Positions 2,797 through 44,758 of a DNA stretch of 64,000 bases are shown one piece after another. This DNA comes from Deltaproteobacteria bacterium (GTDB taxonomy: Bacteria > Desulfobacterota > Desulfuromonadia > Desulfuromonadales > JAAYDE01). The first letter of the stretch is position 1. Each line of letters opens with the position of its first letter. Position numbers and translations under genes: made by a program. The notes under the pieces are model-generated. The model ran no database searches. It was not told the origin of the DNA and saw only the letters and a list, made by a program, of their open reading frames with translations. Location: assembly GCA_016926265.1 (NCBI GenBank), contig JAFGOW010000038.1, positions 12,964 to 76,963 of the forward strand, written 5' to 3'.

Positions 2797-5700
2797 GGTT
2801 CCAACTCCTTGGCGCCCGCGGAGAACGCCTGTTCCAGCGCCCGGACGGCCGGCAATGGCGGCCGGTCATGGAAAATCCCCGAGGAGGGGGCGGCCCCGTC
2901 GGCGAAACCGCGCAGGAACAGATAAAAAACCCCGCCGAAATGGCGATCGTAGTCATAATCCGGGATGCGTACCCGGAGATATTTGTGGAGCGCCAGGGTA
3001 TAGAGGTAATACTGGAGAAAGTAGTACTCCTCGGCAATGGCCTCCTCCAGCCTTTGGGGATGGTAGTCGTCCGGGGAGGGACCGAGATGATTGGATTTCC
3101 AGTCGACGATGAAATAGCGTTCCTGGTGCCGGAACACCAGGTCGATGAAGCCCTTCATGAACCCCTGGCGGATGTTTTCGGGCAGCCGTTTCAGGCGGTC
3201 TGCAAAAGTCCTGGAACGAGGGGTGAAGGAGAGAACGCCGGCCAGATCAGCCCCGTCTCCCCGTTGAACGGGGAAGAAAAAGCCCATTTCGGTGAGTCGG
3301 GACGCTCTTCCGATCTCAGCCAGCGAAAAGGTGCCGTTCCGGCCGGGAAGGGGGGCCGAAAGGAGGCGCTTCAGAGTGGCGCGCACCACCTCCAGCCAGG
3401 GGCCTTCCTCGAAACGGTAGCTCCGCAGGGCGTCGCCAATGATGCTGTCCCACTGCTCCGGCCTGCTCTGGAAATCGATCCGCTCCAGGATACGATGGAG
3501 ACAGAGGCCGGCGCGGGGACCCCGGGGGAAATCGGCGATGCCGGGCGCCATTCCATGAATGGCTTTTAAAGGCCCGGTGGTCGGAATGGGCGCCACGGGC
3601 TCGAACTCCAGGTCCCCCTCCGAACCGCGATGGGGTGCTACCCAAGCCGAAAAACTGCCGATCCGCCATGGGGGCGGGAACTGATCCGGGCCGGGGGCGA
3701 GTACCAACGGCTCCCCATTCTCTTCAAACCGGCGCCAACGGCCGGTTGGGACCGTTACCGGCGGCTCCACCCAGGAGACTCCCGATTGGGGCACCGTCGC
3801 CAGCGATCGCATCTCAGCGGCCAGGGCGGCATCATCCAGCGTGTTGAAATCGATGGAAAAAGGGGCCGCTAGGGGATCTTTGGCGCAGCGTCCATGGAAC
3901 AGGTAGGCAACCCCCGAGCCGGCGGCTCCCCGAAAGGCACCCCAGGCCAGGTAACAGAGGTGCTTGGCGCGGGTCACCGCCACATAAAGCAAGCGCATAT
4001 TCTCCGCCAGTTCCTCGGCGGCCATGGCCCTTCGATGGGCCTCCAGAGCGTCGCTGCCGAGATCGAGGGTCAGCGCCTGACCGGCTTCCGGGTCGTGGAA
4101 AAAGACCAGTTCCCGGCTCCCCGCCCCCAACCAGCAATACGGTGCGAATACAACCGGGTATTCAAGGCCCTTGCTGCGGTGGATGGTGAGGACCTGGATC
4201 GCCTTGTCGTCGGTTTCCAGCCGCAGTTGATATTCCTCCTGCTGGGGACGTTCGGAACGTTGGCGGGCAAACCATTTGAGCAGGGCCTTCATTCCCAGGT
4301 GGCGTTCCTCGGAAACCCGGTGAAGGAGTTCCCAACAATGGATCAGGTTGGTCAGGCGCCGTTCCCCATCCGGGAGGGTCAGCAGCCGTTCCCGGACCCG
4401 GTGCCGGCTCATCAGGTCGGAAGCCATGGCGAGCAACCCGTCCTGGAGCCACAGTTGGTGCCATTCGTTGAAGCAGGCCAGCCACTGTTCCCAGCCGGCC
4501 TCATCATTCTGCAATTCCTGAAAATGGCGGATGGAGAGTCCGAACAGGGGAGTGGCGAGGGCCGCCCGAACCAGCGTTTCCTCGCCCGGTTCAGCCACCG
4601 CCTGCAGCAGTTGGAGGACATCGCCGGCCTCCGGCGAGGCGAACAGGCTTTCATCGCCATGGATCACGGCCGGAAGGCCCAGGCTTGCCAGGGCGTCCCG
4701 GATCAGGCGCGCCTCCCGGTTGGTGCGGACGATGACGGCTATGTCGGCGGCCTCCAGGGGTCTATCCGGACCGCGCCGCGCCGCCGCCATCGGGGTGGTC
4801 CGGACCGCCGTCAGCTTGGCTTTCCCCTCCCTGCCCGCTTCGAGCAGGCGGAGGATTTCGTTGCCCACCGCCTTGGGAACGAAATCGTCGGCCCGGGTCC
4901 TCGGAATCTCTTTCTCCCCCTCCTCCCGAGGGAAAAACCAGAGCCGCAGGGGGTTTTCCAGGGGAGCGCCCGAGAACTGGAGCACCTCGGCTTCGTCGGG
5001 GGCCGCGGGAACCGCTTCGTGGAAGCGGATGGCTTCGAAAAGAAAAGGATTGCGGTGATCCCGGAACAGGGCGTTGAAGGCGCGGATCAGCGCCGGGGCC
5101 GAGCGCCAGTTGACGGACAGCGGGAACCGGACCGCGTCCCGGCCGGCGTTCATGTAGGTGAAGATGTCGGCGCCGCGGAAACTGTAGATGGCCTGCTTCG
5201 GGTCTCCGATGATGAAGAGCAGCGAATTGGGGGCATCGTAGATGGAGCGGAAAATCCGGTATTGGATGGGATCCGTATCCTGGAACTCATCGATCAGGGC
5301 GGCCGGAAACTTGGCGCGGATGGCTGCGGGCAGCGTGCTGCCTGGGCCGCTGAGGGCTTGGCGCAGATCGCGGAGCAGATCGTCGAAGGCTCGAACCCGG
5401 AACTGTTCCTTGCGGCGGGGGAGTTCCGCCCGGAGATAATGAAGCAATTGCTCCCGGACCTGGGACCAGTGAAGGTGAAAATCATCCAAGAGAAGCTGCC
5501 GTTGGCGTGAAAACCGGCTGCAACAATCGAAAAAGGGATGGGTGACTCGTGCCGCCCCTTTCTTGAGGGCGCCGTCAAGACGTTCCTGGGTGCAGCGGTC
5601 GAGGTGTTCCCAGGCGAAAAGGGGGTCTCCCGAAAGGAAAAAGGCGTCTCCGCCGGCCATCCAGGCGCCGATCTGGTCCCTGGGGTAACTTCTTCGGTTC

Positions 5701-6437: not shown

Positions 6438-9400
6438 GGAATTTTCTCCAGGGAGTTCAGAAGCGGGGCATAAATCTCTTCGGCCTTCGCTTCAAAATCC
6501 GCATCCAGAGGGTCGGTTTCCCCGAAACAGAATCGCAGGGAGGGATCCTCTTTTTCGCCCCGCTGGTAAGGGGTTCCTTCCCAGGCTTTTCGCCCCGCTT
6601 CCCGTGCCCGGTCGCGGTTTTCTGGGTGGCGTGCCAAGGTAGCGGCAAATCCCAGGGAAGTCTCGGGGAAAAAGGGGAGAGGACGATGCAACCCCTCCCA
6701 GTAGAGGGCCAGCAGCCGCTCAAGAAAAGGGAAGGGGTTTGGGGCCGGCGCCAGGCGGCAGGTGCCGTCCCTGGCGAACAGCCAACTCCCGGCCTGGGCC
6801 GCCGGCTGTTCCAGGGCGTCGAGAAGGAGCCGGGTCAACCAGGCCTGGAGCCGATCCACGGCCCGGAGCCGGGCAAAGTGGTGGTGTACCATCCGGTCGC
6901 CATGCCGATGGGGAAGAAGCCCTCGAATTTGAAACTCTCCGATCCGGAGTGCCAGGGGGGGGTCTTGGTGGCGTTCCTCCCCGGCGACGGCATGGATGGC
7001 CTGGGCCAGGCGTTCAGCTTCGAGAGCCAGATCGGTGAAGACGATATGTCCCGCCGCTCCGGGCGGCAGCATCCCCTCTTCGCGTATTTCGGAATAAAGA
7101 GGGAACAGCTGTTTTCCCGCCAAGGCCGCCTCCGTCAACCTTTCGCCGAGCCGGTAGCGATCTAGCGGGGCGAGGGCAAAGGGCTCCCGTTCCTCGGCCA
7201 AAAAAGGCACCTGCCTGAAAACGATGCCGAGGCGGCGGTGGGCGAAATAACGTCCTGGTTGGCAAAAAAAACGGATCAGGTCCGAATAATCGATTGTTTT
7301 CCAGGAAGGATCGGCTTCCGGCAGCCTGGTGGCATCGGAAATCGGCGGCGTGGGTCCCCGGCGGGCAGCCAGCGCGGCCTGATAATTTTCCGGGGAAAAA
7401 CTCGCCAAGGGGGATGAGGCCGAGAAATATCCGGAATGGAAGGCCTGCAGGCGATGCTGGAAAAAAATTGCCGACCGGGCGCCCTGGAAACCCTTTTCCA
7501 GATAATCCGAGAGTTCGCTGACGAGAACCGATGGCGGCAGCTCCGAGTTGTCCCGTTGGCTCTGGCCGACATAGCTGATGAAAAGCCGCTGACGCGCCGA
7601 CAGCAGGGTTTCCAGAAACAGATAGCGGTCCTCGTGACGCGGAATGCGGTCTCCCCGCTGCGGGCGGGCCGCGATCCGGTCGAAGGCCGGAGCCGAAAAA
7701 GCGCGGGGGAAGGCGTCGTCGTTGAGGCCGATCAGAGCAATGATTTTAAAGGGGATACTGCGCATCGGCAACAGCGAGGCGAAGGTGATGGCTCCCGACA
7801 GGAAGCGGCCTGGCGCCGCGGCCTGGGATTCGAGACGGTCGCCCAGATAGGCTTCGGCCACTTCGATGGGAACCGCCGCGGCGGCTCCCGAGCTTCCCGA
7901 GGTGGCGGCCAAGGAAGAGAACAGCTCCTCCAGAAAGAGATAATCCGCTTCCGACCCTTCATCCGGTTGGAAAAACCGCTCCAGTATCCAGAGAAACTGT
8001 TCCCCCCAGTCCCGCATCGAACGGGGAAGGCGGAGGGCCTCCATATGTTCGGCGACGGCTGCGATGAAATCCGCCAGCCGCCCCAGAATGGCGGCGTTTT
8101 CGCCCTCGCCGGCATCGTAAGGAAGGATTCCCTCGAAGAGTCCCCCCGCGTCGGGAAGGGCATGGCCGAGCAGCAGACGATCCAGCGCCGCCCCCCAGCT
8201 GTTTTCCTGAAAAGGGGGAATCCCGAAACGGGCCCGGTCGGCGGCGTCCAGGCCCCAGCGGACACGGGTTTCCTCCACCCAGACCCGGATCCGGTCGAGG
8301 TCCTGATGTTGGCATCCGAACCGGGACATGATGGGTGGCGCTTCCAGAAGATCGAAGACTTGGGGAGCGCCGCAACGGGAATTACGGAGCGCCAGTAATT
8401 CCAGAAACAGGGAGGCCAGGCGATTTTCCCGCCGCACTCCGAGGTCGGCGACGGAGAACGGGAGGCGACGGCCCGGAACGGACGGGGTCTTGAAAACCGC
8501 GGCGATGTAGGGGGCGTAGGTGCCGATGTCGGGGGCCATGACCAGGATGTCGCCGGGGGTCAGACCGTGCAGGTCCTGAAAACAGCCCAGCAGAAAATCG
8601 TGGAGCGCCTCGATTTCCCGCAGCGGGCTGTGGCAGGAATGGATCTGCAGGGATCGGTCGCCGGCAGCGACGGCGGTTTTTTCCGATTGGATCGTCCGGT
8701 CATGCAGATGGAGCAGATCGCCCTGCAGGGCGGCGAGGAGGGTGTTTTCCCCGGGCTCCTGGAAGAGGTCGAACTGCGAGAGTTCCCCCTGTTCCCAGAG
8801 CAGGCCGAAAAAGTCCCGGCCCGACCGCCCCCAGGAAGCCAGCAACGGTTGCGAAACCTCATAATGAAGGGCTTCGAAAGCTTCCGGAGCCGACGCCTCT
8901 CGGCGGGCGGCGGTTTTGGGGGAGGAAAGGTCGAGCCAGAACTCTTGGCAGGGGTTGAGTAAGAAGAGATGGACCGGGCAGAAGCGGGCGGCCGCCGCCA
9001 ACACCTCGATATGATAGGGGGGCAGGGCGGAGACCCCGAAGATGTTGAGAGCTGCCGGGAACACACCCGACGGCAAGTGGCCGGTTTGGCAGCGCCGCAA
9101 AAATTCCCGTTGGCGGCGGGCGCGGTGCGGAGCCGGGTTGGCGGCGACCCATTGGCGCCACAATTCGGCCTGCCAGTCGGTTTCCTCGCCCCGCTCCCAT
9201 GACAGAAGGAGGTCGGGGCGGTAGATGGAATATTGGTCGAAAAGATGCGCCAGGCGGCGGGCCAGTTGATAGGTCTTGAGATCGGGCGCCTCCCCGGTCA
9301 GAAAATGTTTCAGGGAGTCGAAGCGGGGCTGAGTGGCCAGCTGTGGAAGCAGGTCCAGGAGGCTGAGGGTCATCCGGTCCCGGTCGAAAGGGTCTTTTTC

Positions 9401-9646
9401 CGGTTCCTCTCCCAGGGCGGCGGTCAGCAGGGCGTCGATCAGGGCGTTGGGAAAGGGGAACGCGAAATTGGCCCAGATCCCGAAACGGCGGGCCAGATTC
9501 AGGGAGAGCCAGGACTCCATGCCCTTGCTCTGAACCAGGATTAGGGTCGGATCCAGAGGTTGCGGCGGATTCTTTTGAAGAACCTCGGCCAGGGCCTCCA
9601 GGAGGGTTTCCAGACGATTGCCGGTGTAGAGGTGAAATCCGGTCAT
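6434..9646 (-). CDS. recC: Exodeoxyribonuclease V gamma subunit RecC
   Basis: The ORF track extends to 9994, but the RecC-like N-terminus MTGFHLYTGNRLETLLEALAEVL starts at Met117 of that ORF (ATG at 9644-9646). The size (~1070 aa) and the position upstream of recB fit RecC. Confidence 0.85.
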   Translation of the reverse strand: MTGFHLYTGNRLETLLEALAEVLQKNPPQPLDPTLILVQSKGMESWLSLNLARRFGIWANFAFPFPNALIDALLTAALGEEPEKDPFDRDRMTLSLLDLLPQLATQPRFDSLKHFLTGEAPDLKTYQLARRLAHLFDQYSIYRPDLLLSWERGEETDWQAELWRQWVAANPAPHRARRQREFLRRCQTGHLPSGVFPAALNIFGVSALPPYHIEVLAAAARFCPVHLFLLNPCQEFWLDLSSPKTAARREASAPEAFEALHYEVSQPLLASWGRSGRDFFGLLWEQGELSQFDLFQEPGENTLLAALQGDLLHLHDRTIQSEKTAVAAGDRSLQIHSCHSPLREIEALHDFLLGCFQDLHGLTPGDILVMAPDIGTYAPYIAAVFKTPSVPGRRLPFSVADLGVRRENRLASLFLELLALRNSRCGAPQVFDLLEAPPIMSRFGCQHQDLDRIRVWVEETRVRWGLDAADRARFGIPPFQENSWGAALDRLLLGHALPDAGGLFEGILPYDAGEGENAAILGRLADFIAAVAEHMEALRLPRSMRDWGEQFLWILERFFQPDEGSEADYLFLEELFSSLAATSGSSGAAAAVPIEVAEAYLGDRLESQAAAPGRFLSGAITFASLLPMRSIPFKIIALIGLNDDAFPRAFSAPAFDRIAARPQRGDRIPRHEDRYLFLETLLSARQRLFISYVGQSQRDNSELPPSVLVSELSDYLEKGFQGARSAIFFQHRLQAFHSGYFSASSPLASFSPENYQAALAARRGPTPPISDATRLPEADPSWKTIDYSDLIRFFCQPGRYFAHRRLGIVFRQVPFLAEEREPFALAPLDRYRLGERLTEAALAGKQLFPLYSEIREEGMLPPGAAGHIVFTDLALEAERLAQAIHAVAGEERHQDPPLALRIGEFQIRGLLPHRHGDRMVHHHFARLRAVDRLQAWLTRLLLDALEQPAAQAGSWLFARDGTCRLAPAPNPFPFLERLLALYWEGLHRPLPFFPETSLGFAATLARHPENRDRAREAGRKAWEGTPYQRGEKEDPSLRFCFGETDPLDADFEAKAEEIYAPLLNSLEKIP

Positions 9647-10065
9647 GGCTGGCCGGAGGGGTTGGGGCGCCGAGGGGAATTTCCCCACTTCGCTGGGAGC
9701 AGGGTCAGAGCGGCCAGCGAGGCGGCCAAGGCTCCGAGACCGTCGGCGATCAGATCGATGAGATCGGCGCTGCGGACGGTGCTGAAAAGGCCCTGCGCCA
9801 GCTCCATGATCGCTCCCAACGCCAGCGCGAAGAAAAAGGCTCCCCACCAGATCAGGCGCTCCGAACGGAACAAGGGACTGAAGCACCATCCTGCCAGCAG
9901 GGTGAGGACGAAATAGGCCAAAAAATGCTGCATCTTGTCCCAGGAGAGGGCGCCGAGCGGGATTTTGGGGAGAGCGGGCGCCAGCGACAGCCATACCAGC
10001 ACCGCAACATAGCCGCTCAGGACGGCCGCCCGAAAGTAACCCCGGGGGTAAGTTTTTTTATTCAT
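9643..10065 (-). CDS. VanZ-like family membrane protein
   Basis: Internal start MNKKTYPRGYF at 10065 of ORF 9643..10317. Four hydrophobic helices, with DKMQHFLAYFVL and SADLIDLIADGLGA motifs typical of VanZ-like proteins. The stop overlaps the recC ATG (ATGA). Confidence 0.65.
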   Translation of the reverse strand: MNKKTYPRGYFRAAVLSGYVAVLVWLSLAPALPKIPLGALSWDKMQHFLAYFVLTLLAGWCFSPLFRSERLIWWGAFFFALALGAIMELAQGLFSTVRSADLIDLIADGLGALAASLAALTLLPAKWGNSPRRPNPSGQP

Positions 10066-31589: not shown

Positions 31590-31790
31590 TCAGACTTTCT
31601 GGACGTTGGCTGCCGAGGGCCCTTTTTCTCCTTTTTCGACATCGAAGCTGACCCGTTGCCCTTCTTCGAGGGATTTGAAACCATCCCCTTTGATGGCCGA
31701 GAAGTGAACAAAGACATCGGGGCCGTTATCCTGTTGAATGAAACCGAAACCCTTCGCATTGTTGAACCATTTCACAGTGCCAGTAGCCAT
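31590..31790 (-). CDS. Cold-shock protein, CspA family
   Basis: [33 protein letters not shown] contains the RNP1 and RNP2 motifs. ATG at 31790 with an AAAGGAG SD 8 nt upstream; the track's GTG at 31799 is rejected. Confidence 0.9.
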
Positions 31791-32183
31791 TGACTTCACT
31801 CCTTTTTCGTGCGGTGGATCGATTTTTGAAATTGCAGCCGAAACTAGCTGCCGAAAAACTGTTAACTTTAAGAATTTTTATTTGTGATCCAAAAAACCAA
31901 ACCTTAAAACTTGGTCCGCAATGCCCTGTAGGGTTGGGTTTCCTCAAACTCGGCCACTTACATTTGGCACTCAGTTTAACATAAAAATTATTTTTTATTT
32001 TTATGCCGGGAAAAATTTTATTTTTTACCGGGAAAAATTCCAGGAATAGGGAATTTTCTTTTTGATTCAAATTTTTTCAGGGGAAAGCGCACGGACCCTT
32101 AGAAACGGGTTAAAAGAAGTCGAAATCCTGGGAATGTTTTTTGCTTTTGAAATTTCAAGAAGGAAGGCAAAAAAATTCAGGTA

Positions 32184-32759
32184 ATGCCTATGTGTACTTG
32201 CTCGGCAATGGATCGAAGAAGTTTTTTAACGGCAGGCCTTTTAGCCGGTTGCAGCCTCGCTTTTCCTTTGAAATCATGGGCAAGGAACGCTTTGGTGCCC
32301 GATTTCTTCGCGGAGAAGGTGCTCTCTCTTTACAATGTCAACACAGGAGAATCATTAGAGAAAATTCCATTCTGGGAAAACGGTGTGTATCTTCCACAGC
32401 AAATTGAAATAATTAACCATTTTTGCAGGGATTTCCGAAATGACAGCGTAAGGGAAATCGATATCCGGCTCCTCGATATGCTTTTCGATATCAGGCAAAT
32501 TTTAAACAGGCCGCAGGCCAACATCCACCTCATCTCTGCATACCGTTCACCTGAAACCAACGAATCCCTTCGGAAAAAGGGGCATGGAGTGGCAAAACAG
32601 AGTTTCCACCTGGTGGGGAAAGCTTTTGACATCCGGGTGGAGGGTGTCGAACTTGTCAATTTGCGCGACGCGGCCTGGCGATATCACCAAGGGGGCGTTG
32701 GTTATTACCCGCGCTCCAGGTTCGTCCATATCGACACCGGACCGGTTCGAAGCTGGTAA
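32184..32759 (+). CDS. DUF882 / peptidase M15A family protein (YcbK/MepK-like), Tat-type signal
   Basis: 191 aa. MDRRSFLTAGLLAG twin-arginine motif. SAYRSPETN, FHLVGKAFDI and RFVHIDTG are typical of YcbK-like M15 peptidases. The exact start is uncertain (32184 or 32208). Confidence 0.8.
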   Translation: MPMCTCSAMDRRSFLTAGLLAGCSLAFPLKSWARNALVPDFFAEKVLSLYNVNTGESLEKIPFWENGVYLPQQIEIINHFCRDFRNDSVREIDIRLLDMLFDIRQILNRPQANIHLISAYRSPETNESLRKKGHGVAKQSFHLVGKAFDIRVEGVELVNLRDAAWRYHQGGVGYYPRSRFVHIDTGPVRSW

Positions 32760-32797
32760 TAATTCAATTATTTTTTACCCCATAAAACGTCGTATAA

Positions 32798-32813
32798 TAT
32801 ATATTATGTAAAC
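32798..32813. repeat. Left copy of the 16-bp direct repeat TATATATTATGTAAAC
   Basis: Identical to 34419..34434. Lies 39 nt after the stop of the DUF882 gene. Confidence 0.85.
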
Positions 32814-33027
32814 AAAGAACGGTTTTGAACCTTACCGTTTCCGGGCTGTTTTCCGGCTCAATAGCAGGCTTCCACCCTGCAAGCATGGCGGAGTTTGTAA
32901 CACGCCATGCGCAAAACCCACCTGTGGGAACTTTCCATTCCTCCCGTTTTTCGACCAAGGCGATTTTTAATCTTTTCGGGTCTCCAAAATGGGGCGTTTC
33001 CAGATCGCCTTTTCCTTCTGGAGCTGG

Positions 33028-33228
33028 TTACATCCTGCGGGCCAAAGTGCGGTCAGTAATACCGCACTTATGGGTAAATTTTGCACATTCCTTTTTCTTC
33101 CTTTCGCGGGTCAACTGCCCGACTTCCTTCGAGAAAACCGAAATTCGCAGGCACTTTTCCGGGGTTTCCGGGAGATCCTGCTTTTCGAGGGTCCGAAACG
33201 GGTTCGTTTGTCCGCCGATTTCCGACAT
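33028..33228 (-). CDS. Small XRE-like helix-turn-helix protein (possibly decayed)
   Basis: 66 aa. ...FSKEVGQLTRERKKKECAKFTHKCGITDRTLARRM fits the XRE HTH pattern. Third-position GC is higher than in the antisense + frame. No clear SD, and the frame continues open after a TAA. Confidence 0.35.
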   Translation of the reverse strand: MSEIGGQTNPFRTLEKQDLPETPEKCLRISVFSKEVGQLTRERKKKECAKFTHKCGITDRTLARRM

Positions 33229-33243
33229 GGTAAGGGGGTCTTA

Positions 33244-33555
33244 ATGAAATATTGGAAGAGCCGTCCACAAGTCAACAGCGTCCACAAGGAAGCGAGCGTA
33301 GCGAGTAGGACCGAGCGCGGCCACCTGGCGCGCTCTGCGAGGTCCGTTTCCCTGTGGGCCGCTGTTGGCCCTGTGGGCGGGTCGCTCCTGGATCGCCTGG
33401 GTTCCTGGGTCCCTCGCCTGGAACGTCTCCCCTTCGGGTTTGAAATCCTGGCCGGTGGTTATGCTCTCCAGGTGCGTTGTTTCTCTCATCGTCAACGGCT
33501 GGCCCGGGTGGTCGATCACGTTCTCGACTGCTGGGCCGCGGGGGTGAAGTCATGA
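33244..33555 (+). CDS. Hypothetical protein orfA (103 aa), first gene of the orfA-RHH-orfC cassette
   Basis: AAGGGGG SD 6 nt upstream of the ATG. The stop overlaps the RHH start (ATGA). The sequence is Arg/Ser/Leu/Trp-rich and full of short DNA repeats, so coding status is uncertain. Confidence 0.35.
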   Translation: MKYWKSRPQVNSVHKEASVASRTERGHLARSARSVSLWAAVGPVGGSLLDRLGSWVPRLERLPFGFEILAGGYALQVRCFSHRQRLARVVDHVLDCWAAGVKS

Positions 33556-33749
33556 GGCGCGGGGTTCCTGATGATCGGCTCAAGGATCGGAAAGTAACCT
33601 TCCGATTGGACCATCAACGCATGGAAGAGCTGGAACAGATCGCCGACAAGGAAGGTGCTTCCGTTTCCTTCGTCGTTCGTCATCTGGTGATGAGATTTCT
33701 TGAACGAAACCGGGAAGCTTCCTTCTTTCCCAGTCCTGAGGAATTCTGA
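33552..33749 (+). CDS. Ribbon-helix-helix (CopG/Arc/MetJ-type) DNA-binding protein
   Basis: 65 aa. KVTFRLDHQRMEELEQIADKEGASVSFVVRHLVMRFLE is the beta-strand, helix, helix signature. Confidence 0.7.
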   Translation: MRRGVPDDRLKDRKVTFRLDHQRMEELEQIADKEGASVSFVVRHLVMRFLERNREASFFPSPEEF

Positions 33750-33751
33750 CG

Positions 33752-34297
33752 ATGGATCGTTGTGAACTTCAAAAACTGATCGAAGGGGGCGGCGGCGGCG
33801 CTGTGGAGCGGCCGGCCGCTCGCCCCCTGCCCTTCGACATCGAACGGATTCTTTGCGACATCAACAGCGGTTTCAATCCGCTTCACGATAATCCGTTGAT
33901 CCGGTTCCGGGTGATGGGGGCCAAAGGGGACTTTGTTTTCCTGACCTTGGCGGTTCCCAAGGGGATGCTGCGGGTTTTCACTTCCTTGCTGGATAACCTG
34001 GGGGCCTTCTTCCGGTTCATGGACAACAAAACGCGGGGAGTTCTGATTCAGGAAAAACTGGCTGACTTGGCCGAGATCGAAAAGGCCCGGAAGGTTCAAA
34101 CCGACTTTTCCGAAAAGGTTTGCTCCTTCTATGACGGTTTTATTGCTCACGGATTCCCCCGAAAAGAGGCCGTTAAACGAACAAATTGGGCGCTCAAGGA
34201 CGAAAAACACCCCTGGGCAAACCGTGATTCCGTCCTGGATGTTCTCCGGGCCGCTGGAAGGTTCAAAAAGGGGTCGGGAGTGTACGTCAAAAAATGA
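33752..34297 (+). CDS. Hypothetical protein orfC (181 aa), family not recognised
   Basis: Host-like codon usage. The ATG lies 2 nt after the RHH stop. There is a Gly5 tract near the N-terminus and no catalytic motif recognised. The antisense 229-aa ORF is rejected. Confidence 0.6.
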   Translation: MDRCELQKLIEGGGGGAVERPAARPLPFDIERILCDINSGFNPLHDNPLIRFRVMGAKGDFVFLTLAVPKGMLRVFTSLLDNLGAFFRFMDNKTRGVLIQEKLADLAEIEKARKVQTDFSEKVCSFYDGFIAHGFPRKEAVKRTNWALKDEKHPWANRDSVLDVLRAAGRFKKGSGVYVKK

Positions 34298-34418
34298 CGT
34301 ACAGGCTGCGGCTTTTGACAAACGTCGGACTTTTTCCCAGAATGTCGGACAAACGGGACCGGCCTTCAATGGGATTGGGGAGGAACTACCTTATATCATT
34401 ATGAAATCACTAGAATTT

Positions 34419-34434
34419 TATATATTATGTAAAC
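34419..34434. repeat. Right copy of the 16-bp direct repeat TATATATTATGTAAAC
   Basis: Identical to 32798..32813 and ends 24 nt before the recG stop codon. A degenerate extra copy, TATATCATTATGAAA, sits at about 34392-34406. Confidence 0.85.
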
Positions 34435-34458
34435 CAAAAGAAAGAAAAGTACTTTCGG

Positions 34459-36618
34459 TTACGCGATGCTGGCCAGCCCCAAACGTCCTCCCCACCGATT
34501 CCGGAGGGTTATCCGGGTTTTTTCCAAATCAGGGTTGGTAAAAAAATCGGGACGGTCCGCCAGGCGAAAAGCTTCCAATCGGGCCGTTTCGAGAAGATCC
34601 TGATGGCGGACCAGGTTGGCGACCCGAAAGTCCACCAGACCGTGCTGGCGGGTCCCCAACAGTTCTCCTGGCCCTCGAATCTGCAAATCGGCTTCGGCAA
34701 TACGGAATCCGTCCGAGGTTCGCTCCATGACCCCGAGGCGTTTTTCCCCATTGGGGCCGGCAGATTCCTTTGCCATCAGGATACAAATACCTTGGTGTGG
34801 CCCCCGGCCTACCCGCCCCCTCAGCTGATGAAGCTGGGAGAGGCCGAACCGTTCCGCGTTCTCAACCACCATGACGGTGGCGTTGGGAATGTCGATTCCC
34901 ACCTCGACGACAGTGGTTGCCACCAGGATATCCGTTTCCCCGGTTCTGAACTTCCCCATGACCGCTTCCTTGTCCTTTGGTTTTATCCGGCCATGGAACA
35001 AATCCACCTTGAATTGGGGAAAGATTTCATTTTTTAATAAAATAAAATTTTTTTCCGCCGTCTGAAGATCGGTTTTTTCAGACTCTTCTATCAGCGGGAA
35101 CACCACGAACGCCTGCCTGCCTTTCGAAACCTCCGCGGCGATCCATTGAAAAACGATTCCTCGCTGTTTCTCCGTTACAATTTTTGTTGTTACCGGAGCT
35201 CTACCCGGCGGCATTTCATCCAGGACCGAAAGGGTCAGGTCCCCATAGGCCGTCAAGGAAAGGGTTCGAGGAATGGGGGTTGCCGTCATGACCAAAGTAT
35301 CGGGTGATATCCCTTTTTCCCGGAGGGTTCTTTTTTGGATAACCCCAAAACGGTGCTGTTCGTCGATGATTACCAAACCGAGGGAATGGAAAACCACCTG
35401 GTTTTCCAGAATGGCATGGGTTCCGACCAAGAGATTAATCCTCCCGGCTGAAAGCTCAGCCAAAACCTGTTCCCGCTCCTTTCTCCCCAGGGAAGAGGTC
35501 AAGAATGACGTCTTTAGGCCCAAGGCCTCGAGATGGGGATGAAACTGGAGGAAATGTTGTCCCGCCAACACCTCCGTTGGAGCCAGAACCGCCACCTGCG
35601 TCCCGTTTTCAATGGCGATCAGGGCGGCCATGAGAGCCACAATGGTTTTTCCGCTTCCGACATCCCCTTGCAACAGGCGGTTCATGGGCCTTGGCGCCAT
35701 CATGTCCTCTTTTATTTCACCCAATACCCGCCGCTGGGCCGCAGTCAGACGGTACGGGAGCCGGGCGGCCAAGGGTTTTGTATAGCGGTGAGTCACCTTG
35801 AAGGCGTGCCCCGGCTGTCCTTCCAGCCCGCGTTTTTTTAAGGCCAACCCCAATTCCAGGAAAAAAAATTCATCGAAGACGAGGCTTTTTCTGGCCAGAT
35901 CGGTGCCATTTTCCAACTCGTGAAAAGGGGTCGTTCCCTCGGGAAGATGGGATTTTCGAAAGGCCTCGGAAAGGGGGAGGAAAAAGTGTCGGTGGAGGAT
36001 TTCTTCGGGGACGGCGTCGCCGGCCTTGTCGGCATACCTTTCAACCAGACGCCGCCAGATGGTGCGAACCGTTTTCTGGGTGAGACCCTCGGTCAGGGGG
36101 TAACAGGGGAGCAACCCCCTCCCCTCCCCTGCTGCGGATGTCAAGGCTGAAGGAATGTCATTCAAACCATTTTCGGATATAAGGAATTCTACTTCAGGGT
36201 GATCCATTTGAAGGCCGCCGCCGAAGACCTTCAATTCCCCGAACAGCAAAAGTTGTCGCCCGACAGTGAATTCCTGTTCCATCCAGAGGCGCCTGTAATG
36301 AAACCAGTTCAGGGTCAATTGGCCGGTAGGGTCCGCTGCCTGCACATGGTAGATTTTCTTGCGGGAGCGGGGTTGAAACACCTCTCCCCGTGCCAGTATG
36401 GTGGCCTGGATCAGGGCGCGTTCGCCGGGACGGATGGTCCCCAGGGGGCGAATGAAGCGGCGGTCTTCATAGCGCAACGGAAGAGTATAAAGGGCGTCTT
36501 CGACGGTACGAATCCCTAAACGGGTAAGCTTCTGGAGGGTTTGAGGGCCGACACCGGGGATGGATTCAATAGGGATCGAAGAAAGGGGGACTTCAGGCCT
36601 GGGAAGGGTTTCGGGCAT
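34459..36618 (-). CDS. recG: ATP-dependent DNA helicase RecG
   Basis: 719 aa with an N-terminal wedge domain. Motifs LLQGDVGSGKT and IIDEQHRFGV. Confidence 0.95.
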   Translation of the reverse strand: MPETLPRPEVPLSSIPIESIPGVGPQTLQKLTRLGIRTVEDALYTLPLRYEDRRFIRPLGTIRPGERALIQATILARGEVFQPRSRKKIYHVQAADPTGQLTLNWFHYRRLWMEQEFTVGRQLLLFGELKVFGGGLQMDHPEVEFLISENGLNDIPSALTSAAGEGRGLLPCYPLTEGLTQKTVRTIWRRLVERYADKAGDAVPEEILHRHFFLPLSEAFRKSHLPEGTTPFHELENGTDLARKSLVFDEFFFLELGLALKKRGLEGQPGHAFKVTHRYTKPLAARLPYRLTAAQRRVLGEIKEDMMAPRPMNRLLQGDVGSGKTIVALMAALIAIENGTQVAVLAPTEVLAGQHFLQFHPHLEALGLKTSFLTSSLGRKEREQVLAELSAGRINLLVGTHAILENQVVFHSLGLVIIDEQHRFGVIQKRTLREKGISPDTLVMTATPIPRTLSLTAYGDLTLSVLDEMPPGRAPVTTKIVTEKQRGIVFQWIAAEVSKGRQAFVVFPLIEESEKTDLQTAEKNFILLKNEIFPQFKVDLFHGRIKPKDKEAVMGKFRTGETDILVATTVVEVGIDIPNATVMVVENAERFGLSQLHQLRGRVGRGPHQGICILMAKESAGPNGEKRLGVMERTSDGFRIAEADLQIRGPGELLGTRQHGLVDFRVANLVRHQDLLETARLEAFRLADRPDFFTNPDLEKTRITLRNRWGGRLGLASIA

Positions 36619-43030: not shown

Positions 43031-43963
43031 CTAGGTGTTTTCGGGAGCGAGGCCGCTGACCAGATAGAGCAAAGCCATACGGACCGACACCCCGTTTTCG
43101 ACCTGTTCCAGGATCACATTCTGCGGGCCGTCGGCCACCTCGGAGGCGATTTCCACCCCCCGGTTCATGGGACCGGGGTGCATGACCAAGGCGTCTTTCT
43201 GGGCCAGAGCCAGTTTTTCACGGTTGAGCCCATGGAAACGGGCGTATTCGCGCAGCGACGGCAGCAGGTGGCGGCCCTGGCGCTCCAACTGGATGCGAAG
43301 CATCATCACCACGTCGGCTCCCCGAAGGGCGTCCTCCATCCTGGTGAAAACCTCGGCGCCCAGTTTTTCGATGCCGGGAGGGATCATGGTCCCCGGTCCC
43401 GCCACGCGCACCTGGGCGCCCATGGTGGTGAGAGCGAACAGGTTGGAACGGGCCACTCGGCTGTGGGCGATATCCCCGACGATGGTCACGGTCAGCCCTT
43501 TGAGCCTTTTCTTGTGCTGGCGGATGGTGAAAAGGTCGAGGAGCGCCTGGCTGGGATGCTCATGGGCGCCGTCGCCGGCATTGATGACGGAGCAATTGAG
43601 GCGGCTGGCCAGATAGTCGGCGGCGCCGGAAGCGGCATGGCGGATCACGATGATGTCGGGGTGCATCGCCTCAATGTTTTTGGCGGTGTCTTCAAGGGTT
43701 TCCCCTTTGACCACCGAGGAAGAAGAAGCGGAGATGTTGACGGCATCGGCGGAAAGCCGCTTTTCGGCGATTTCAAAGGAGGTGCGGGTCCGGGTGGAGG
43801 CTTCAAAAAAGAGGTTCACCACCGTTTTGCCGCGCAGCGTCGGCACCTTTTTGATCTCCCGGGCATTGATTTCCTTAAAGCTCTCCGCGGTATCGAGAAT
43901 CAAGGTGATATCCTGTTCGGAAAACCGCCGGGTTCCGAGAATATGTTTGTGGCGGAAGGTCAT
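43031..43963 (-). CDS. pyrB: Aspartate carbamoyltransferase catalytic subunit
   Basis: 310 aa. [19 protein letters not shown] and HPGPMNRG. Confidence 0.95.
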
Positions 43964-43984: not shown

Positions 43985-44679
<695 letters not shown>

Positions 44680-44758
44680 ACATCGGAGTAAAGATTTTCA
44701 CAAACTATAGCAGGCTGTCCCGGAGGCGGCAACAGCAAATTTTATCTGGTTGATAAAA

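Follow-up and report, generated by a model that had tools for sequence, protein, structure and literature searches.

An RHH gene and its partner from an unnamed family on a small element inserted at dif in a Desulfuromonadales bacterium

What unit does an overlapping three-gene cassette, orfA-RHH-orfC, belong to, when two of its three products match no named family? We address this question in a 64-kb stretch of Desulfuromonadales DNA, referred to here as the window, in which the cassette had been singled out as a possible undescribed module of the mobile or maintenance type. All three ORFs and their junctions, overlaps included, lie exactly where the original prediction had placed them:

33244..33555, + strand: orfA, an orphan ORF of 103 aa (ATG 33244, TGA 33553-33555).
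33552..33749, + strand: gene for an RHH (CopG/Arc-type) DNA-binding protein of 65 aa (ATG 33552, TGA 33747-33749).
33752..34297, + strand: orfC, 181 aa (ATG 33752, TGA 34295-34297).

The RHH start, which has GGGGGTGA 4 nt upstream, overlaps the orfA stop in an ATGA at 33552-33555, and the orfC ATG follows 2 nt past the RHH stop. The orfA frame remains open further 5', up to an ATG at 32989 (188 aa).

The assignment of the 65-aa protein to the RHH class was borne out: Pfam RHH_1 matches at 23.1 bits (cut-off 20.5) over residues 15-52, covering the whole model of the beta-alpha-alpha RHH domain, and PHROG families of Arc-like and CopG-like repressors match as well. Neither orfC nor orfA has a match in Pfam, PHROGs, NCBIfam, PADLOC or the PDB sequences. 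A first search returned 16 homologs of orfC and a profile search 210, whereas a scan of IMG/VR yielded no relatives. The suspicion that this family is undescribed held up, with a Pfam family in none of 90 members and no significant Foldseek match for the orfC structure models (AF2 model pLDDT 85.6) in the PDB or, using the first model only, in the BFVD viral set; orfC is the founding member of an unnamed family. The name "UPF0335", attached to one homolog by JGI, has no Pfam support in any of the 90 members. The protein comprises an N-terminal domain (approximately residues 29-103: helix, beta-hairpin, long helix) and a helical C-terminal domain (approximately residues 106-181) with an HPW motif and a basic tail.

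Judging from substitution patterns against two relatives that are 78-86 % identical, both RHH (pN/pS 0.04-0.10) and orfC (pN/pS 0.15-0.27) are real genes under purifying selection, and most related elements carry a homologous small gene directly 5' of orfC. The RHH-orfC part of the cassette is thus a real, conserved, translationally coupled pair, but the three-gene unit proposed at the outset did not survive comparison, because the position of orfA is empty in some relatives and taken in others by an HTH_17 protein or by small ORFs unrelated to it. The association of the pair extends to fusion: RHH and the orfC C-terminal domain are repeatedly joined in one polypeptide (131 aa in L001, 146 aa in L021, and also P0095, P0111, P0112 and P0115), the RHH part of the L001 fusion being 36 % identical to the window's RHH protein. 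The C-terminal domain also occurs alone, and a distinct element integrated at dif, L019e2, encodes a homolog of it (hhalign probability 94.7 %) alongside a G2P-type Rep; the domain is thus the one protein module common to Rep-less and Rep-encoding dif elements. These comparisons identify RHH and the C-terminal domain of orfC as the conserved core.

The cassette is enclosed by two sites that resemble dif:

32787..32814, + strand: attL, a complete dif, with XerC arm ACGTCGTATAA (32787-32797), central TATATA (32798-32803) and XerD arm TTATGTAAACA (32804-32814).
34408..34435, + strand: attR, a hybrid site, with degenerate XerC-side arm CACTAGAATTT (34408-34418), TATATA (34419-34424) and XerD arm TTATGTAAACC (34425-34435).

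Neither site had been mentioned in the original prediction. The 14-mer TATATTATGTAAAC occurs in the 64 kb only at the left site and at 34421 (0.01 expected), and the left site matches the published dif of Geobacter sulfurreducens, ACGTCCCATAAGATATATTATGTAAAGT (PMC2731167). attR is a direct repeat of attL, with which it has the centre and the XerD arm in common, so that one copy is of the chromosomal type and the other a hybrid; this type of attR is kept in the relatives L007 and L008. Positions 32798-34418 thus delimit a 1,621-bp element lodged in chromosomal dif between a DUF882 peptidase gene and recG. A related metagenome contig (L054), whose flanks are 73-82 % identical to those of the window, lacks the insert: DUF882 and recG enclose a single dif there, to which the first 27 nt of attL are identical. 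Set against this empty site, the orfA-RHH-orfC locus is shown by sequence comparison to be an insertion by site-specific recombination into the chromosomal dif. The genes do therefore sit on a small mobile element, as had been guessed, but the true unit is larger than the 33244-34297 first assigned to it, running from 32787 to 34435 between the dif-like sites.

We listed all ORFs of at least 45 aa in 32787-34435 and scanned them against Pfam: the RHH domain was the only one found, none of the ORFs encodes a recombinase or integrase, and there is no xer gene in the 64-kb window and no tRNA at the element boundaries. Because the element encodes no recombinase of its own, host Xer recombinases must serve it, and it is therefore built like an IMEX (integrative mobile element exploiting Xer), a class known mainly in Vibrio, Xanthomonas, Neisseria and Legionella. 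In its attP, a degenerate arm on the XerC side and a good XerD arm flanked TATATA, so that integration produced a complete dif to the left of the element and a crippled one to its right.

The same arrangement recurs in relatives. A canonical dif, an interval of 0.8-1.9 kb with the gene, and a half-degenerate copy were found in nine of ten genome loci and in L001 and L004, and orfC relatives lie between two such sites in nearly all loci with enough flank; L009 and L023 have one half-site each near the gene. The isolate Desulfuromusa kysingii DSM 7343 has a family member of 1.45 kb (NZ_FNQN01000006.1; L018 about 4219-5669). Three loci (L001, L004, L019) hold tandem arrays at dif. Chromosomal neighbours vary by locus, with creatininase, AMP-ligase or PAS kinase elsewhere in place of the window's recG and DUF882. 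The distribution is patchy: a family member is present at only four of the 80 dif loci with the window's dif variant. A search for second half-sites in 80 metagenome dif loci gave only three weak candidates. As far as the available loci indicate, the orfC family is found almost only beside dif in Desulfuromonadales, where it could serve as a practical marker of dif and the terminus in MAGs. In the window, GC skew shows no sign change at the site; convergent gene orientation is the one feature that points to a terminus-like position there. Our literature search for IMEXs in Geobacter or Desulfobacterota, or for IMEXs with RHH proteins, returned nothing relevant.

Between orfC and attR lies a short stretch with two conserved features:

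34315..34351, + strand: outward-facing promoter-like site, TTGACA-17-CAGAAT, from a promoter scan.
34371..34383, + strand: accessory motif GGGATTGGGGAGG, 48 nt from the crossover region.

The promoter-like site is overlapped by a pair of repeats that resemble operators, CGTCGGAC (34323-34330) and the palindromic TGTCGGACA (34343-34351), and one or two GTCnGAC-type repeats are present in most of 15 related elements. The TTGAC box recurs in 14 of these 15, 96-108 nt from the crossover region, and every one of the 15 has a GGGnnnGGG motif at a distance of 42-49 nt (mostly 45-49) from the central region; both always lie on the side of the degenerate arm, whether the good arm is of the XerC or the XerD type. 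The family anatomy thus reads as follows: an outward promoter with paired GTCnGAC operators, a GGGnTTGGG motif, the degenerate arm, the centre and the good arm, then a hairpin-CCCTGTGGGC module, a variable gene slot (occupied by orfA in the window), the RHH gene and orfC.

To the left of the RHH gene, the element contains the following parts:

32815..33243, no strand assigned: left part of the element, no supported gene; the ORFs here have no Pfam matches.
33308..33378, + strand: conserved non-coding module inside orfA, a GC-rich hairpin (33308-33345) followed by GTTTC + CCCTGTGGGC twice (33350-33359, 33369-33378).
33440..33551, + strand: nearly invariant block directly 5' of the RHH start, with 5 variable positions in about 112 nt (window, L007, L008).

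Positions 32815-33243 resemble none of the other fetched loci, either as nucleotides or in translation; when the left half of the element was compared with all fetched loci by tblastx and blastn, the only matches were L007, L008 and the L019 hairpin (83 % identity between window 33308-33358 and L019 5482-5529). A similar hairpin followed by CCTGTGGG is found in the elements of L004, L012, L014, L015, L019 (both), L020 and L021, its stem varying in sequence; hairpin folding beats shuffled sequences in five of six copies (z -2.3 to -5.0). At a permissive threshold, Rfam returned only a chance CRISPR-DR match in 32700-34500. The codon score of orfA (0.22) is near those of RHH (0.28) and orfC (0.29), and no stop interrupts its frame in L007 and L008 across 52 common codons, where pS is unusually low (0.10-0.22); beside the invariant block, RHH and orfC have pS values of 0.33-0.62 against the window and of 0.18-0.39 between L007 and L008. 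The ORF orfA is missing from the equivalent slot of all other elements, and it is not confirmable as a conserved gene: 5.8 billion proteins yielded one match, an identical copy. Judged by these sequence features, orfA is a lineage-specific orphan ORF that overlaps the conserved hairpin module, and a candidate gene.

Several known systems resemble parts of this locus. Plasmid Xer sites such as cer and psi have accessory sequences bound by PepA/ArgR or ArcA. Like them, the window element has conserved accessory DNA (about 100 bp) that flanks the core on one side at a constant spacing, and proteins bound there would allow FtsK-independent recombination; unlike them, its candidate binders, RHH and orfC, are element-encoded, whereas the accessory proteins of cer and psi come from the host and the reaction is multimer resolution, not integration. 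The pdif modules of Acinetobacter are described as having oppositely oriented sites and as mostly plasmid-borne, whereas the window's sites are direct repeats in a chromosomal housekeeping context, one copy being half-degenerate. What the two have in common are short gene modules between XerC/D-type sites, some pdif modules carrying toxin-antitoxin pairs (PMC7399989; PMC12907356).

The closest parallels are with IMEXs of Vibrio cholerae. TLC-phi is several kb in size and orfC-family elements 0.8-1.9 kb; moreover, orfC elements lack a Rep. TLC-phi-type IMEXs, whose factor XafT consists of HTH_XRE and DUF3653, are likewise integrase-less, inserted at dif and found in tandem arrays, with one degenerate attP arm and a small element gene directly beside attP (PMC6744903; PMC9226527). 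FtsK-independent activation of Xer by IMEXs has been worked out only for XafT, to which XafV has very recently been added. The genes of both adjoin attP, and integration at the degenerate-arm TLC attP depends on XafT (PMC6744903; bioRxiv 10.64898/2026.06.12.731946). V. cholerae IMEXs have been described as forming the new dif on the right-hand, XerD side, and most orfC relatives (L001, L004, L012-L016, L018, L020, L021) have this TLC geometry, with a degenerate XerD arm; in the window, by contrast, the degenerate arm is XerC-side and the complete, new functional dif is at the XerC-side end. Membership of orfC in the DUF3653/XafT family was considered and rejected, since neither orfC nor 90 relatives match it in Pfam and hhalign against the DUF3653 protein of Xanthomonas phage Cf1c gave a probability of 0.2 %; DUF3653 is reported only in gamma- and beta-proteobacteria, whereas the hosts of orfC are Desulfuromonadales. 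VGJ-phi-type IMEXs offer a parallel in that a factor gene beside attP (XafV = ORF136) raises Xer-mediated integration (bioRxiv 10.64898/2026.06.12.731946), but VGJ-phi is a complete filamentous phage with both attP arms paired, and the orfC models had no significant Foldseek match to set beside its factor.

We consider it reasonably probable that the locus is a miniature dif-inserted IMEX in which RHH and orfC enable or regulate Xer recombination. Going by sequence patterns, an RHH dimer would bind the operators and control the promoter, which in the excised circle would read across attP into RHH-orfC. RHH and the orfC C-terminal domain would assemble next to the degenerate arm on the fixed accessory DNA, with RHH covering the two GTCnGAC(A) repeats and orfC, or the complex, covering the stretch from the GGGATTGGGG motif through the degenerate arm. 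This assembly would recruit or activate Xer for FtsK-independent integration and excision, making RHH-orfC a functional analogue of XafT/XafV or of the cer/psi accessory proteins. By its sequence pattern, the hairpin module is a candidate origin for a G2P-type Rep supplied in trans, and Rep-less elements would therefore be satellites. A bolder version, which we hold only tentatively and rate as doubtful, is that RHH and orfC with its HPW C-terminal domain form a third, unrelated system of Xer activation or targeting, in which a nucleoprotein platform replaces one recombinase-binding arm. Such a platform would therefore work with either arm. If this is true, it would permit a fourth geometry of IMEX, in which the XerC arm is degenerate and the new dif forms on the XerC side, and elements of 0.8-1.6 kb would be the smallest known to integrate themselves. 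The locus points to an unreported IMEX family in Desulfuromonadales (relatives of Geobacter), to elements cut down to one or two genes and a structured att region of about 130 bp, to a protein family with no known relatives, and to two mirror-image att designs on one scaffold. So minimal a system would be a clean model of what suffices and is needed to hijack XerCD, and would show whether one factor serves hijacking from both the XerC and the XerD side.

An active part in recombination has to be weighed against more passive roles. RHH and orfC might be only a regulatory or immunity pair, either repressor and co-repressor or agents of superinfection exclusion, with integration left to basal Xer activity or to the activation factor of another element. 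RHH proteins are typically repressors, the paired palindromic operators overlap the promoter, and orfC has no similarity to known Xaf proteins by hhalign and BFVD search; furthermore, basal XerC activity is enough for CTX-type IMEXs to integrate, and a Xaf factor can be supplied in trans (bioRxiv 10.64898/2026.06.12.731946). However, in the minimal elements of 835 bp (L001e1) and 1.24 kb (L021) the RHH-C-terminal-domain fusion is the sole family-related gene, their att has a degenerate arm, and TLC-phi integration at such a site depends on XafT (PMC6744903). Together with the presence of the C-terminal domain in Rep-less and Rep-encoding dif elements alike, this makes a purely regulatory pair improbable. 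We give appreciably less credence to the type II toxin-antitoxin layout suggested in the original prediction, in which RHH-orfC would be addiction cargo stabilising the element or the terminus region. As in systems with an RHH antitoxin of the RelB/ParD/CopG type, a small RHH gene is tightly coupled 5' of a larger gene, and the RHH protein has weak RelB-like NCBIfam matches (20.7 bits against a cut-off of 50), but orfC belongs to no toxin family or fold by Pfam, NCBIfam, PADLOC, PDB sequences or Foldseek, and is tied to dif-flanked elements. The deep family alignment shows no obvious catalytic set, its near-invariant residues being limited to Pro, Asp and Gly. A type II toxin and its antitoxin are two distinct polypeptides that neutralise each other, so that the frequent fusion of the supposed toxin domain to RHH is unexpected and counts against this layout, as does its occurrence alone; we found nothing that speaks for it positively.

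CopG-type RHH proteins control the copy number of rolling-circle plasmids, which, with a conserved hairpin module in nearly all elements, would fit a replication or copy-control unit of the excised circle, made up of a CopG-like repressor and an unrecognised initiator with the hairpin-CCCTGTGGGC module as its target. This is very unlikely: orfC has no HUH or other initiator motif, L019e2 has its G2P-type Rep besides the C-terminal-domain protein, so that the C-terminal domain is not the Rep, and the orfC N-terminal domain is wholly missing from the 835-bp element. Lastly, the cassette might be an immobile resident of the terminus region, flanked by chance by a duplicated half of dif. No circular form and no transfer genes were seen, and a 141-aa subfamily adjoins dif with no recognisable second site, but the empty site of L054, the differing chromosomal neighbours, the tandem arrays and a 133-nt block common to two neighbouring elements at 99 % identity leave this explanation barely credible for the window. 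Since the 141-aa subfamily also has no RHH gene beside it, some members of the family may be fixed host genes.

A repeat search found TATATATTATGTAAAC(A/C)AA at 32798 and again at 34419, a spacing of 1,621 bp, and the 14-mer core of the repeat has no further copy in the 64 kb, where 0.01 would be expected. The left copy reads ACGTCGTATAA-TATATA-TTATGTAAACA, i.e., a complete XerC arm, centre and XerD arm of the chromosomal dimer-resolution site dif, and closely resembles the dif published for Geobacter sulfurreducens, ACGTCCCATAAGATATATTATGTAAAGT (PMC2731167). The right copy, CACTAGAATTT-TATATA-TTATGTAAACC, shares the centre and XerD arm with the left one and has a non-canonical XerC-side arm. 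Between these sites lie the three ORFs of the cassette, with the coordinates and junctions originally predicted:

32787-32814, left dif copy
33244-33555, plus strand, orfA, 103 aa, frame open upstream to 32989
33552-33749, plus strand, RHH gene, 65 aa, its ATG overlapping the orfA stop in ATGA
33752-34297, plus strand, orfC, 181 aa, starting 2 nt past the RHH stop
34408-34435, right dif copy

Genes converge at the right site (plus-strand genes to 34297, minus-strand genes from 34459), and both flanks are housekeeping: an M23 peptidase, a small ORF resembling a cold-shock protein, and DUF882 on the left; recG, a greA-like ORF and carB on the right. GC skew shows no sign change at the dif-bracketed locus. 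GC content falls to 36-44 % at 31600-32400, against 55-63 % over most of the window, around a small minus-strand ORF (31590-31799) and the DUF882 gene start. Elsewhere in the window, a PyrR-binding RNA element (Rfam RF00515, 60.1 bits; 44569-44682, minus strand) lies upstream of a run of pyrimidine-biosynthesis genes including an aspartate carbamoyltransferase-like gene (43031-43963).

Scanning metagenomes for the window's dif variant yielded 80 loci, only four of which contain an orfC-family member. The metagenome contig L054 has the order DUF882 homolog, spacer of ~150 bp, one ACGTCGTATAATATATATTATGTAAACT, ~25 bp, recG. It matches the window at 73-82 % identity in its flanks and lacks RHH and orfC. 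Because L054 holds a single dif between the same flanking genes and no insert, the 1,621 bp of the window represent an insertion into dif. Domain scans detected no recombinase domain in any ORF of the insert. Integrase-less insertion at dif, with a complete dif at one end and a hybrid one at the other, is the structure of integrative mobile elements that exploit Xer (IMEXs) (PMC6744903; bioRxiv 10.64898/2026.06.12.731946), and by every sequence-level criterion testable the window element is an IMEX. Its classification as a pdif module was rejected.

The 65-aa protein scores above the Pfam threshold for RHH_1 and also matches phage repressors of the Arc-like and CopG-like families, confirming the RHH call. 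Neither orfA nor orfC, both originally left unassigned, has a match in Pfam, PHROGs, NCBIfam, PADLOC or PDB sequences. orfC is a real, unnamed protein family tied to dif: it has 16 homologs of 40-86 % identity in a set of 5.8 billion proteins, a 100 % match in a Deltaproteobacteria MAG, and 210 family members by profile search. The coding signal sought for it is present, since pN/pS against two relatives (78-86 % identical) is low, at 0.15-0.27 for orfC and 0.04-0.10 for RHH. No Pfam family was found in 90 members, a PDB profile search with orfC was empty, and hhalign detected no similarity to the DUF3653 protein of Xanthomonas phage Cf1c; membership of the DUF3653 family of the known Xer activation factor XafT was rejected on the Pfam and hhalign results. 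An AlphaFold model (pLDDT 85.6) consists of a helix, a beta-hairpin, a long helical hairpin, two short helices and a basic tail; Foldseek returned no PDB match for it (best E 1.2), and an earlier model of lower confidence (pLDDT 69.8) had found nothing in PDB or BFVD.

All ten genome loci with orfC relatives belong to Desulfuromonadales, Geobacteraceae or unclassified Deltaproteobacteria, and among the hosts is an isolate, Desulfuromusa kysingii DSM 7343. In nine of them (the tenth is interrupted by a contig end), as well as in loci L001 and L004, the orfC-family gene is enclosed by a canonical dif and a half-degenerate copy that retains one arm and the centre, the two sites being 0.95-1.9 kb apart. 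Two further loci, L009 and L023, have one half-site each near the gene; chromosomal neighbours vary from locus to locus. Beyond the cassette of the window, gene contents are as follows (e1 and e2 mark the two elements of a locus):

RHH and orfC: L014, L019e1, L020, L004e1
HTH_17, RHH and orfC: L004e2, L012, L015
Unrelated small ORFs, RHH and orfC: L001e2, L016, L018
RHH fused to the orfC C-terminal domain in a single protein: L001e1 (835 bp), L021 (1.24 kb)

Profile hits include further RHH fusions and stand-alone C-terminal domains. A separate dif-flanked element of 2.2 kb, L019e2 (L019 2347-4570, minus strand relative to the locus), encodes an inovirus G2P-type rolling-circle Rep (PF23343), a NikA-like RHH, and a 99-aa protein homologous to the orfC C-terminal domain (hhalign probability 94.7 %), and may serve as a helper for Rep-less mini-elements. 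From these gene contents, the fusions and the L019e2 homolog, the family core is RHH plus the orfC C-terminal domain, a helical domain with an HPW motif; the N-terminal domain and the upstream gene slot are optional. The neighbourhood survey placed orfC relatives in dif-bounded elements, in line with the original guess of a small maintenance-type module. A 141-aa subfamily occurs in L052, L034, L067 and L023. Of the N-terminal part its members have only the beta-hairpin and helix, joined to the C-terminal domain, and they end in a GRPGRxGRPR tail, AT-hook-like in appearance. In L052, L034 and L067, ~20-30 bp separate the gene start from dif's XerC arm, and these loci lack both an RHH gene and a recognisable second site. 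The L023 gene has, 44 nt upstream, a half-site whose XerC arm is degenerate. These proteins may be domesticated, or parts of larger elements.

The sole database match of orfA is an identical copy, and no counterpart occurs in the other elements compared. It overlaps a non-coding module common to most elements, a GC-rich hairpin, variable in stem sequence with pairing preserved, followed by GTTTC-CCTGTGGG. Its codon score (0.22) is similar to those of RHH and orfC, L007 and L008 keep the frame open, and changes in 52 shared codons lean synonymous in frame, but number just 9-13 per pair. Compared with the neighbouring genes, synonymous divergence is lower by a factor of two to four, and the 112 nt preceding the RHH start are almost invariant. 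Judging from sequence, orfA, which may be translated, appears to be a lineage-specific ORF over constrained non-coding sequence; the status of a conserved gene is not supported. In the reverse complement of L054, the stretch separating DUF882 from dif contains GGCAGGGGAGCCCTGTGGATTTC, some 100-130 nt upstream of the latter; this sequence includes CCCTGTGG, a motif of the hairpin module, and could be a remnant of an earlier element or a coincidence.

We compared the region from the orfC stop to the degenerate arm in 15 elements. Fourteen of them have a recognisable TTGAC(A) box at a distance of 96-108 nt from the crossover centre. In the shared layout, a GGGnnnGGG motif stands 42-49 nt (mostly 45-49) from the centre, and a TTGAwAT-like stretch lies immediately outside the degenerate arm. 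GTCnGAC-type repeats, one or two per element and spaced by about two helical turns, are present in most elements, the best copies forming the palindrome TGTCnGACA; in the window they overlap a -35/-10-like pair, a putative promoter directed out of the integrated element. This layout is the same whether the good arm is XerC (most elements) or XerD (window, L007, L008). In V. cholerae IMEXs, by published descriptions, the new functional dif forms on the right-hand, XerD side, and in TLC-phi the XerD arm is degenerate (PMC6744903), a geometry followed by most relatives. By contrast, the elements of the window, L007 and L008, as well as L019e2 and probably L023, have a degenerate XerC-side arm and the complete dif on the XerC side, a design of which we found no description in the literature. 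IMEXs are a known kind of element; what is new is the host clade, the core protein family, the extreme miniaturisation and this mirror-image att design. At L069 14-706, a single unrelated ORF of 152 aa is flanked by a canonical dif and, 665 bp further on, a site that combines a good XerD arm with a degenerate XerC arm; this may be another mirror-geometry mini-element.

The sequences establish insertion at dif, the lack of an integrase, a conserved core of RHH and C-terminal domain, and a fixed accessory architecture. Transcription from the promoter would, in an excised circle, run through attP into the hairpin module and RHH-orfC. We infer that RHH binds the paired operators and controls this promoter, and that RHH and the C-terminal domain assemble beside the degenerate arm, where they would recruit or activate Xer without FtsK, by analogy with XafT/XafV or the cer/psi accessory proteins. 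Xer activation is suggested because in minimal elements the fusion is the only family-related gene alongside a degenerate-arm att, and because TLC-phi integration at a degenerate-arm site depends on its own activator, XafT (PMC6744903). The hairpin module, which the Rep-encoding element also has, is a candidate origin; if it serves as one, the Rep-less elements would be satellites.

The most serious competitor is that RHH-orfC is a regulator only, a reading favoured by the repeats over the promoter-like pair; against it stands the pairing of core and degenerate-arm att in minimal elements. Less weight falls on a toxin-antitoxin function, the original guess from the RHH gene preceding a larger one: the cassette contains no recognisable system of this type. 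Replication control ranks third. A fixed, non-mobile locus, least probable of the four, is at odds with the empty site of L054 and the varying neighbours.

Elements occur as tandem pairs in L001, L004 and L019. Those of L004 share a block of 133-137 nt (3783-3919 and 5095-5231), 99 % identical and beside the XerC arms, and are ~76-85 % identical elsewhere where alignable, which points to a recent exchange, or gene conversion, at the end nearest to att. In L001, a 25-nt motif is common to the DNA after the first and third sites (4438-4462, 6903-6927), and a 946-aa protein with no Pfam match (7068-9908) is encoded directly past the array's last att site.
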